Below are positions 50,864-57,551 of a stretch of DNA of 64,000 nucleotides, one piece after another. Numbering within the stretch: position 1 is the stretch's first letter; each line of letters opens with the position of its first letter. Position numbers and translations under genes: made by a program. The notes beneath the pieces are model-generated. The model ran no database searches. It was not told the DNA's origin and saw only the letters and a list, made by a program, of their open reading frames with translations. The DNA is from Lingula anatina (Eukaryota; Animalia; Brachiopoda), in contig CM120645.1 of assembly GCA_051362555.1 (NCBI GenBank), positions 1,736,001-1,800,000 on the forward strand, written 5' to 3'.

Positions 50864-51289
50864 GTTGAGTTAGCTCTTTGGGATACAGCTGGACAGGAAG
50901 ATTACGACCGCCTTCGACCACTCTCGTATCCAGACACAGACGTCATTCTGATGTGTTTCTCTATCGACAGTCCAGACAGTTTAGAAAATATCCCTGAGAA
51001 GTGGACGCCGGAGGTGAAGCACTTCTGTCCCAACGTCCCAATCATCCTAGTAGGCAACAAGAAAGATCTGCGGAATGATGCTACAACTCAGCGTGAGCTA
51101 CAGAAACTAAAACAAGAGCCTGTGCGGACAGAGGAGGGTCGAGCAATGGCGGAAAAGATTGGTGCTTTTGCATACCTAGAATGCTCGGCAAAGACAAAAG
51201 ATTGCGTTCGTGACGTTTTTGAGACAGCCACACGTGCTGCTTTACAAGTATCAAAAAAGAAGAAGCGCAGGATCTGTAAATTCCTGTAA
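50864..51289 (+). CDS. RHOA: RhoA alternative terminal exon A (193-aa product ending [11 protein letters not shown])
   Basis: Polypyrimidine + CAG acceptor, phase 0, [12 protein letters not shown] to stop. AATAAA at 52285-52290. Confidence 0.92.
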
Positions 51290-54187
51290 TGTTGAAATGT
51301 GAGGGGGGAAAAAGCATTGCTAAACTAGAGATAGAAAAATAAATGATTTGTTTTCCTGTGGATGGTATCTGTGTGGAGATGAAAGTCTGTGAAATTATTT
51401 TTGTAAATCTTTTATCACTTTTTTTCCTTCAGTACTTCAGTTGTGTGTTTAAACTTTAATTCTGAGGACCTGAAACTTAGCTGGAATATGTCACGCTGTG
51501 CCCAGGCTCAGGTTTTGGCCCACTATGTCCTTGTGTTTTGTATATACTTTGGTTTGTGTTTATTTTGAGAAGAATATGCTGTTTGAACATAGGTGCTGAA
51601 AGAATAGATGAACAAACAATTATATGTACGTTAGTGTAGTTTTATAATTTTTAATTCACCATAGTCCCAAGTTAAAAGTGGATGGCATGGTCTTCACTTA
51701 TGAAAAAATAATGATAGAGAAAACTGACTCCACAGGACTGTGGGTATGTATGTGATCCCTTGCACAGAATGCGGTGTTTATTAAAGTTGGCAGTGTACAG
51801 TACTACTACTTGGTAACCAGTAGAATGAACAGCTTATAGGGTCAAATTATCCTAATTTCACGAAGGTCGTAGAGTTCAGCTTGGCTTTGTCATCTAGTTG
51901 GTATGCTGTTTTACTTGCACCTTTGATGAACATTTTATGTAAAAACCTGGTACATTGTGTAGAGCAATGGCAAACCATGAAGTTTGATAGTTGCCCAAAT
52001 GTAACCAAGTATTTGAGTGTCTGCCTATCGCATTACTACAGGAAGATGTGGCTGTTAAGGGGCATTGAACTGTAAGTCCTCCGCGATCATTCTTCGGGCA
52101 TATTTGGGAATCAGCATGATCTGGCCACTGCAGAGCAGTTGCAGATAGTGAAAACTGAAGCTTTCTTTGAATGTATGAAAGTGTATAAAATAAAGAATAT
52201 GTTAGTGCCACTCACTGTTATATACTAAATGATCTGTGTTTAGTCTTGAACTGAATTTATATGTGTGTGTAGTAGTATATAGACAATAAATGAAGTTGTA
52301 AACATTCTAGTTCTGCTTTTGACAAATTTCGTTTCCACTGGAAATTCTTTTACTCTTGAAAACATCCCATGGTGCTGTTTGTGGTTTTGATCTGGGGGAT
52401 TAAAAACTTGCTGAAAGATGTAACATCTTAACTTCCCTTATGTGTAAGGGGAAACAAATCCCCAAGTCTGGAAAATCTTCAGGTTATTTTTTTCAGCAAT
52501 GAAAATGCCCCCCCCCCATCCCCAAACATGGCTAACCCTCTATATATCTGATATTGAAGTGGAGCCGCTCTGCATTTTTTCACTTCTCTCATATTTTCTC
52601 AAAGCAGGCTTGAGGCTGATTTTTATGCTCAAGTGTGTGTATATTTCAAGTGACTTGGACGGGTGTAAAACCTGATCGTATGTCACATCTGGCAATAACT
52701 TAATGAAAACTGCTGCTTGAAATGGTGGAAGAGGCTCCCAGACCTGCTGTGTAAACTGACTCAGGGTGGTGGTGGGACACTGTCTACTGGTGAGTGGAGC
52801 TCTAACTCTAAGCATGCATAGACCTTGTACCTACGTGTCTAGTTTGTCCCCTGACCTTGCCAATCCCCCCCCCCCCCATTATTTACCATCACAATAGGCT
52901 CACTTGGTGAACTCTGCAAAAAAGGAGCATGCTTAATATTTCTTTAATTATTTCTTATTTCTTTGCATGAGAGTGGTTATGGGCTCTTCATCACCCTCCT
53001 TGTTTATCTGGAACCAAAGTTGATGGAGGTGGAGGTGAAATATTGCACAAGATTTCCTCTTTTGAACCAGTTAAATTAATATGACCTGGATAATGAACTT
53101 TTCATAAAATGAGCTCTCTTCAGGGATAAGATTTTTCTTACTATTGGCAGATTTCTGGGAACCAAAGATGTCAGTTTTGACATCCATGCCGATCTGCAAT
53201 ACAAACTTGGGGGGGGGGGGGGGTATTTGGTAGGTCTGGACCCCACCCCACCTTTACTGACTTTTTATGAAATGGCAGTTTCAACCCTGAATAGTTAAGA
53301 GTCCTGTGGGAGGGGGGGGGGGGGGTCTGGCATAGTGGATCCATTTTTTTTTCAGGGACAAACCTGCATTTAAGTTCCATGTATGATGATTTCCACTTCC
53401 TTGTTAATTTTTTCTGTGGTCAGAAGTTCAGCCATGTGGAAAGCAAATTATATATCAATAAAGTGGGGAACTTCAAGACAAAATTACCAATGTTATGAAT
53501 ATAAAGAAATTGGAAGGAGGTTGTGACCATGAAATTGCCACAGGAAATTTTTCATCATTGGTTTTTTATTTTTCATTCGTATATTTATTTGTAGTGTGGA
53601 TAATTGCAAGTTTGGAGTTAGTCCCCACGTGTGATGGGTGTTGTCTCCCTTCCACATACATATGCTGTTAACCCCTTACCTTCAGGATACTGTAAGGGCC
53701 CATTTACAGGTCAACTGTGCCTGTGTGACTTAGTACTTCCTTGGGTTATGTGAATACAACATCTAACCTCTCCCCTTCCCTCCTTGGTGTTGTAGTAAGC
53801 AGCTCTTACTGCTGGAGAGAAGGTGTTGATGGATTAGATTGACTAATAGATGTTTTGTTTAGATATTGTTATCACATGGAAGCTGAACTGACACATTAAA
53901 AAGACCCAATCTGCCTTGATGCCACTTTCACTCTGCTTGTGACACAATTACTCCGGTTTGTTTCACTCTGACCAGTTTTGCACTCCATTGTCCTCTATTT
54001 AAACTGCCATGTTACCATGTTTCTTTTTTTTTTCCTTTTCACGTTTTGGAATCCTTTGCTGCATGGTTTTGTTTTATGCCAGCTATCCCAACCTGAATGT
54101 GACCTCTGATGTATTTGGCATGGTATTAATGGACAAGCACTTTTATAGCAAGTAGCATGTGCACTCAACATTTTACTTCTCTTTCAG

Positions 54188-57128: not shown

Positions 57129-57551
57129 GTTGAGTTAGCTCTTTGGGATACAGCTGGACAGGAAGATTATGACCGCCTTCGACCACTCTCTTATCCAGAC
57201 ACAGACGTCATTCTGATGTGTTTCTCCATCGACAGTCCAGACAGTTTAGAAAACATCCCTGAGAAGTGGACGCCGGAGGTGAAGCACTTCTGTCCCAATG
57301 TCCCAATCATCCTAGTAGGCAACAAGAAAGATCTACGAAATGATGAAAGTACCAAACGAGAGCTCATGAAGATGAAACAGGAACCAGTACGGCCTGAAGA
57401 TGGTCGAGCAATGGCGGAGAAAATTGGTGCTTTTTCTTATCTAGAATGTTCTGCAAAGACTAAAGAGGGAGTGAGGGAAGTATTTGAAACAGCCACAAGG
57501 GCTGCGTTGCAGGTGAAGAAGAAGAAAAAGGGAGGGTGCCTACTTTTGTAG
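57129..57551 (+). CDS. RHOA: RhoA alternative terminal exon C (192-aa product ending [11 protein letters not shown])
   Basis: TTTTCTTTCAG acceptor, intact frame, no N-terminal Rho exon seen between B and C. AATAAA at 58371 and 59603. Confidence 0.92.

Follow-up and report, generated by a model that had tools for sequence, protein, structure and literature searches.

A RhoA gene with three alternative terminal exons

The window analysed here is a stretch of 64,000 nucleotides from the brachiopod Lingula anatina (GenBank assembly GCA_051362555.1, contig CM120645.1, positions 1,736,001 to 1,800,000), which by its sequence holds a RhoA/Rho1 subfamily GTPase gene whose products are predicted to bind and hydrolyse GTP and to be prenylated (Table 1). 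One shared coding exon is followed by three exons, A, B and C, each preceded by a pyrimidine tract and an AG acceptor, starting in phase 0 and encoding RhoA from V53 to the stop. RNA reads (four runs from three studies) join the shared exon to A, B or C at GT-AG introns, and no A-B, A-C or B-C joint occurs among the joints listed for the four runs (15 of 22, alongside 40 of 316 rows of differences from the window). Usage varies, with A/B/C joint counts of 116/135/56 in run X13 and 34/9/122 in run X16, and each exon has its own stop codon and its own expressed 3' UTR. These homologous exons of the same phase are tandem-duplicated alternative terminal exons of a single RhoA gene.

Table 1. Positions of the RhoA gene features within the window.
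Feature	Position	Strand	Basis or remark
Main 5' UTR exon	47655..47733	+	Joints 47732->48680 in 4/4 RNA runs; read starts at 47655
Minor upstream donors of the 5' UTR (two)	near 47500 and 48198	+	RNA reads
Shared coding exon, aa1-52 (P-loop, switch I)	48681..48847, ATG 48692	+
Terminal exon A, coding part, aa53-193	50864..51289	+	Spliced in RNA; equals C-terminal 141 aa of XP_023933166
Putatively homogenised front half, exon A (V53-D124)	50864..51079	+
3' UTR, isoform A	51290..52300, end approximate	+	RNA depth; AATAAA at 52189, 52285
Terminal exon B, coding part, aa53-192	54188..54610	+	Equals C-terminal 140 aa of XP_023933168
Putatively homogenised front half, exon B	54188..54403	+	Four-base haplotype in first 63 nt, replaced by that of exon A in other animals
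3' UTR, isoform B	54611..56580, end approximate	+	RNA depth; AATAAA at 56565
Terminal exon C, coding part, aa53-192	57129..57551	+	Equals C-terminal 140 aa of XP_023933170
Putatively homogenised front half, exon C	57129..57344	+	Shared sequence stops at 57344; contig branch points 57338-57345, loose ends 57345
Insert-helix codons 125-136, exon C (divergence peak)	57345..57380	+	pS >1, pN 0.26-0.36
Insert-helix stretches matching that of exon C	A 51080-51115; B 54404-54439	+
3' UTR, isoform C	57552..59620	+	AATAAA at 59603; read ends at 59589-59601

The A, B and C products equal the RefSeq Lingula anatina ras-like GTP-binding protein RHO isoforms X1, X2/X3 and X4/X5 (XP_023933166-171), so the isoforms themselves are already annotated; those entries give isoform annotation only and are silent on synonymous sites. 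The G domain resembles human RhoA chains (E 1e-81), with exon C identical over V53-E125. An insert helix (aa124-136), a polybasic tail and a CAAX-like end are present in all three exons; the C-terminal boxes are CKFL, CLIL and CLLL, and in the box of exon A the first A position is basic.

Three local peculiarities were noted along the gene. The window's T at 50989 (exon A, aa94) is found in 0/4 RNA runs and is either a private allele or an assembly error. A stretch of 134 nt in the B 3' UTR (55381-55514) is skipped with non-splice ends in 77 X13 reads and is probably a deletion allele. Finally, 50432-50602 in the intron before A and ~58965-59136 in the C 3' UTR share a 175-nt inverted homology (80.6%) that encloses all three exons; it is probably a dispersed repeat, with reads on both strands continuing into unlike sequence.

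Divergence along the terminal exon

Over V53-D124 (216 nt) the copies differ at 9 (A-B), 7 (A-C) and 5 (B-C) sites, every one synonymous (dS 0.22, 0.17 and 0.12), in agreement with a sequence-only reading of this DNA that had called these front halves identical in protein, with about 5-9 synonymous changes. That reading also described many synonymous and replacement differences in the second half, and codons 125-180 do carry 42-44 differences per 168 nt between copies (dS 1.23/2.64/2.72 and dN 0.16/0.13/0.12 for A-B/A-C/B-C), with dN/dS ≤0.13. Among codons for the same amino acid, 9/69, 7/69 and 5/69 differ in the front half and 18/44, 23/44 and 23/45 in the back half, a difference significant in every pair (Fisher p 1e-3, 2e-6 and 2e-7). 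Along the exon dS is stepped and not uniform, and the change point in divergence beats 10000/10000 permutations. The residues of V53-D124 are the same in human RhoA, so the protein identity of the front halves needs no conversion; by this comparison it would be ordinary purifying selection, and only the synonymous identity calls for an explanation.

The step was said to fall where the insert helix begins. From the window sequence alone the best synonymous break is less sharp, at aa118/119, with near-equal fits from 114 to 127. The reads of other animals put the end of shared sequence at 57344/57345, the D124/E125 junction, and copy-specific loose ends all begin there (57344-57345). The insert helix of RHOA spans aa124-136 according to the excerpted text of PMC8305018; the D124/E125 boundary is its start, and divergence between copies is highest at aa125-136.

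Outside the exons the copies could not be aligned, as had been claimed: BLASTN (word 7) among the four intron and UTR blocks found no copy-to-copy homology, the sole strong match being the unrelated 175-nt inverted repeat. Upstream of the acceptors, in-register identity is 9-10/10 over the first 10 nt and then 5/10 or near chance. The proposal that the duplication is old holds in so far as dS exceeds 1 and the introns are unalignable, but not as a dated event.

Further features of the front half concern tract length and base composition. B and C share an identical run of 107 nt, reached by 6/10000 shuffles, and the longest identical run of A and C is not significant (3800/10000 shuffles). GC3 is higher in the front than in the back half by 0.20 (A), 0.12 (B) and 0.22 (C), differences reached by 1, 2 and 1 of 36 single-copy controls; for exon C the front half shows no significant GC3 rise over the shared exon (p 0.26).

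The back halves lie below saturation (21/50, 25/50 and 24/51, against 0.62 of other paralogues; p 0.003, 0.056 and 0.021), and B equals C at 7 consecutive variable sites in aa160-168 (54/20000 permutations), partly from A's own replacements. Either conversion leaks into this half or the copies are younger than supposed, and given the incomplete saturation and the possible small B=C tract the front/back split is possibly not absolute. The divergent, copy-specific back halves uphold the idea that insert and tail stay isoform-specific.

Probable gene conversion and the alternatives

Reads from two RNA runs (X14 and X20) and two DNA runs (X9 and X10) of other animals were aligned to the exon C front half alone, which pools all three copies; pooled reads were taken at 88% likeness and are unphased to copy, assembly contigs drop variants, and rows present solely in three divergent contigs, which probably belong to other Rho genes, were left out. 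None of the 7 differences between the window copies in aa53-118 is fixed: in X20 five of these sites are monomorphic and the other two are 93% and 81% one base. The front half is polymorphic at another nine synonymous positions, which indicates that third positions are free to change.

Exon B is marked by a haplotype of G,G,T,A at aa62, 64, 66 and 73, where exon A has A,A,C,G. The B haplotype makes up 46-47% of X14 reads at three diagnostic sites (200/430, 196/425 and 221/472) and is missing from X20 (0/189, 0/181, 0/182 and 0/183), where A's A,A,C,G is the common state. Exon B is nonetheless expressed in X20, as seen from B's base at aa119 in 46/152 reads and from 69 loose ends with the B insert consensus. 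Runs X19 and X21, from the same study as X20, have 0 joints assigned to B although B-specific back-half depth exists, which is what a B exon with a 5' end now the same as that of A would give. Two of the four sites are two-fold degenerate, so that a match to A is forced there, and the chance for the other two is 1/9. Unphased frequencies in X14 suggest that C and A also carry sibling-matching alleles at aa66, 73, 85 and 122.

The DNA runs agree with this picture in that front halves collapse in their contigs and branch near aa122-124. Among the contigs listed (16 of 30), one of 212 nt in X10 (57126-57337, depth 89.4) branches to C (44.5) and B (49.1) contigs; at aa122 the contig anchored in B matches A, and at aa119 it has the base common to A and C. 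The depth of a 101-nt contig in X9 is 2.6 times that of a single copy. Free mutation, lack of fixed differences and haplotype transfer together are the interlocus-conversion pattern set out in the available text of Fawcett and Innan (PMC3924837). The signature predicted for conversion is found in other animals, between studies that carry one species label, with no fixed front-half differences and with a B exon that carries A's haplotype in front of its own back half.

A metagenome scan gave 80 Rho loci, and 0 of the first 48, which were inspected, had two terminal exons; the 36 closest, ungapped single-copy sequences served as controls and 44 more distant or partial ones were dropped. Across 738 non-tandem pairs (108 of them a window exon against a locus; pairs not independent), the mean share of synonymously different codons is 0.595 in front (aa53-118) and 0.597 in back (aa119-180). 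The largest back-minus-front excess in a control is 0.31, against 0.32, 0.42 and 0.41 in the window pairs. When two other Rho-like exons of the window are compared with A, B and C, the share of differing codons is 50-59% in the front half and 57-65% in the back half. Five sets of close relatives have back/front ratios of 1.18, 1.14, 0.74, 1.87 and 0.90, none significant (p 0.14-0.57), against 5.9 in the window (p 3e-9).

With population reads and single-copy controls in agreement, and with the GC3 rise as a possible further sign, we consider it very probable that the front halves are homogenised by recurrent gene conversion that stops at the insert helix, as the sequence-only reading had proposed. 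It had offered constraint at the RNA level as the alternative. Under such constraint, splice enhancers near the acceptor, structure or docking-site pairing would have kept three old copies alike without exchange. The conserved zone does start at the acceptor, the site of splicing signals, and the closest control group has a mild, non-significant back-half excess (ratio 1.87, p 0.16), yet the single-copy Rho genes lack the asymmetry and 16 synonymous positions of aa53-118 vary across the window and the four runs. Folding of the C and A front halves is no better than that of shuffles (z -0.04 and 0.30), and pairing with the upstream intron does not clearly exceed 12 shuffles in any duplex other than against a poly-G run, with back-half controls scoring equally. 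RNA constraint also leaves B's uptake of the A haplotype unexplained, and we hold it to be improbable. A mixing of the copies by assembly or polishing, which would make front halves only look alike, is barely credible: a near-perfect 216-nt repeat is hard for short-read assembly and base 50989 is without support in the four RNA runs, but pooled raw RNA reads themselves differ by a mean of only 1.95 (X20) and 3.5 (X14) per 198 nt, compared with 42-44 per 168 nt for the copies beyond the boundary, and raw reads hold the window's B haplotype at B's share, which refutes such mixing.

The exons might instead be recent duplicates whose back halves diverged fast under positive selection, a reading to which back halves short of full saturation and a lineage-variable exon number (three units in scallop models) lend something. 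It is very improbable, since back-half synonymous divergence is high too (dS 1.2-2.7, dN/dS ≤0.13), introns and UTRs are no longer alignable, and exon C is 90.6% identical over aa125-180 to the last exon of 18 other species. A closer rival includes the same conversion step and differs in the boundary, which would be neutral: a fast insert escaped by chance and now blocks conversion, and selection would have no part in the differences between isoforms. In favour of this, variation among Rho proteins is generally greatest in the insert, and upstream copies of other species are unlike one another (75% mean identity). We regard it as unlikely, although it is the strongest of the four alternatives, because none of the three frames is broken, each has a CAAX-like end, dN/dS is low, isoform use varies by run as the joint counts of X13 and X16 attest, and K128, R129, M132, R140 and P141 are kept in 18/18 last-exon models as well as in C.

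Under recurrent conversion with a selected boundary, purifying selection would keep 72 codons identical in protein and so maintain near-perfect 216-nt repeats separated by 2.9-6.3 kb. Repair that uses a sibling exon as template would then overwrite tracts with no change of protein, and such neutral tracts could spread. Tracts would be limited upstream by non-homologous intron and downstream by the mismatch-dense insert helix, and those entering the insert would erase isoform differences and be removed. Selection on these differences probably both made and keeps the barrier, with neutral escape as the alternative; that the back halves (insert helix and membrane tail) are held apart by selection is likely, which for the insert we infer. 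The outcome would be three GTPases that have one switch I/II surface in common but each its own insert helix, polybasic tail, CAAX box and 3' UTR; differences in membrane site, in some effector contacts and in mRNA control are predicted.

Some observations in the same reads stand apart from these comparisons. X19 and X21 differ from the window at ~180 places per 13 kb, against 62-105 in other runs, which suggests a distinct population under the same species label. Other Rho paralogues, located elsewhere in the genome, are represented by X9 records 11 and 13 and X10 record 6; one of these contigs differs at 12 positions in 127 nt of the front half, and one has a B-like insert. An excess of front over back orthologous differences in exon B (4/21 against 2/56 codons, p 0.04, among the rows listed) was not counted.

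Related arrangements elsewhere and other features of the window

Among longer proteins, a search found many models in which two terminal-exon units are chained behind one aa1-52 exon. They come from bivalves, gastropods, a chiton, cephalopods, an annelid and a nemertean; others are from some insects, corals, a hydroid and a sea star, and for these tandem genes are possible. More than 20 public models of ~320 aa join terminal exon 1, mostly cut at Q180 (donor-like GT), to exon 2, and reflect either repeated misannotation or a genuine minor splice form; of the window's exons, A has only a weak donor-like site at Q180 and B has none, and no double-Rho joint occurs among the RNA joints listed. Isoforms that share an N-terminus but not a back half occur in Mytilus and Argopecten.

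Identity among the downstream units of 18 selected lophotrochozoan models is 90%; the upstream units are 75% identical to each other and 76% to downstream units. Exon C is nearer the downstream unit in 18/18 (90.6%, against 78.4% for the upstream unit), shares K128, R129, M132, R140 and P141 with it, and has its nearest counterpart in the final exon of the mollusc, annelid and nemertean models. This constant order, with a divergent copy first and a conserved copy last, suggests a shared origin. Exons A and B could not be matched to the upstream exon of molluscs, A being nearer the downstream type in 12/18 and B in 18/18. In a protein tree of aa125-180 (48 rows, 56 columns), where 6/43 inner branches are well supported, neither upstream nor downstream copies form one clade in any of 200 bootstrap trees, and each label clusters more than in 500/500 shuffles. 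Several single-copy loci also have downstream-type residues, and scallops gained their third unit on their own.

A single, Cambrian-age origin of tandem Rho terminal exons is possible. We advance as a tentative proposal, plausible but rather doubtful as a whole, that the pair predates the split of brachiopods, molluscs, annelids and nemerteans and gives several RhoA-like proteins per gene, a counterpart of vertebrate RhoA/B/C; that in this lineage conversion has held the switch II halves together over hundreds of millions of years; and that insert-helix selection fixes the boundary, which would then map the specificity determinant. Homogenisation is not universal, since the two copies of several bivalve models differ from each other at aa109 and aa121, and strong homogenisation may be limited to some lineages, with oysters, mussels and scallops keeping different residues in their two front halves. 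Residues common to both copies were also noted (R104 in heterobranch snails, T121 in Dreissena and S109 in scallops); this sharing fits conversion weakly, at positions that flip often.

The nearest known parallel is the set of variable exons of fugu protocadherins, which in the excerpts of PMC1852091 are likewise tandem alternative exons of one locus with synonymous homogenisation of part of the exon and a sharp boundary, much as here; their converted part has raised GC3, as the RhoA front halves may have too, and the diverged part is thought to carry specificity. Those are promoter-chosen first exons homogenised in their 3' part, whereas RhoA has three terminal exons chosen by splicing and polyadenylation, homogenised over a 5' tract of 216 nt, in a small GTPase. 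Homogenisation is not automatic: variable exons of UGT1 are mostly without it at the regional scale (excerpts of PMC1885805). The red/green opsin model of Fawcett and Innan (2011) shares polymorphism between copies, low paralogue divergence in converted regions and, as in the RhoA exons, a divergence peak, there at sites presumed selected; opsins are whole duplicate genes with homogenised introns, as the excerpted article describes them (PMC3924837), whereas the RhoA introns are unalignable and the probable conversion lies within half a coding exon.

Duplicated last exons that give one small-GTPase gene different membrane-targeting tails are known from KRAS4A/4B and CDC42, and in the accessible part of PMC9882654 KRAS and CDC42 alone switch terminal exons among 167 human superfamily members. 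Their last exons are mutually exclusive, and gene conversion goes unmentioned in that part of the text (PMC9882654). RhoA differs in that the duplicated exon covers 140 of 192 residues, has three copies and swaps the insert helix too. Judged by title and opening of the abstract, none of the papers listed in our literature search, mostly outside subscription journals, deals with tandem terminal exons of RhoA or with conversion between them.

Conversion and divergence on two halves of one exon make a compact, testable case with live population evidence, and mark insert helix and tail as the regions of Rho that selection would keep different on an otherwise identical protein. How Rho isoforms acquire specificity is thereby put to a natural experiment. 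The architecture is widespread in lophotrochozoans, apparently undescribed and often modelled publicly as a 320-aa double-Rho. In practice, the isoforms are indistinguishable by short reads or probes in the front half.

Elsewhere in the window, 6760-10938 and 29400-33579 form a segmental duplication at a spacing of ~22.6 kb, with two divergent Rho-like genes per copy; one pair (7110-7544 and 29779-30213) differs at 15/435 nt and gives Pfam Ras matches, and the predicted ends of these genes are without a standard CAAX box. Three minus-strand blocks (534-2438, 18283-25736 and 38394-44746) consist of repeated units of 620-1050 nt, each with a cysteine-rich exon-like frame, of which one related frame has a weak cEGF match only. 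On the plus strand, 13662-15854 holds broken non-LTR retrotransposon-like frames with a reverse transcriptase match.
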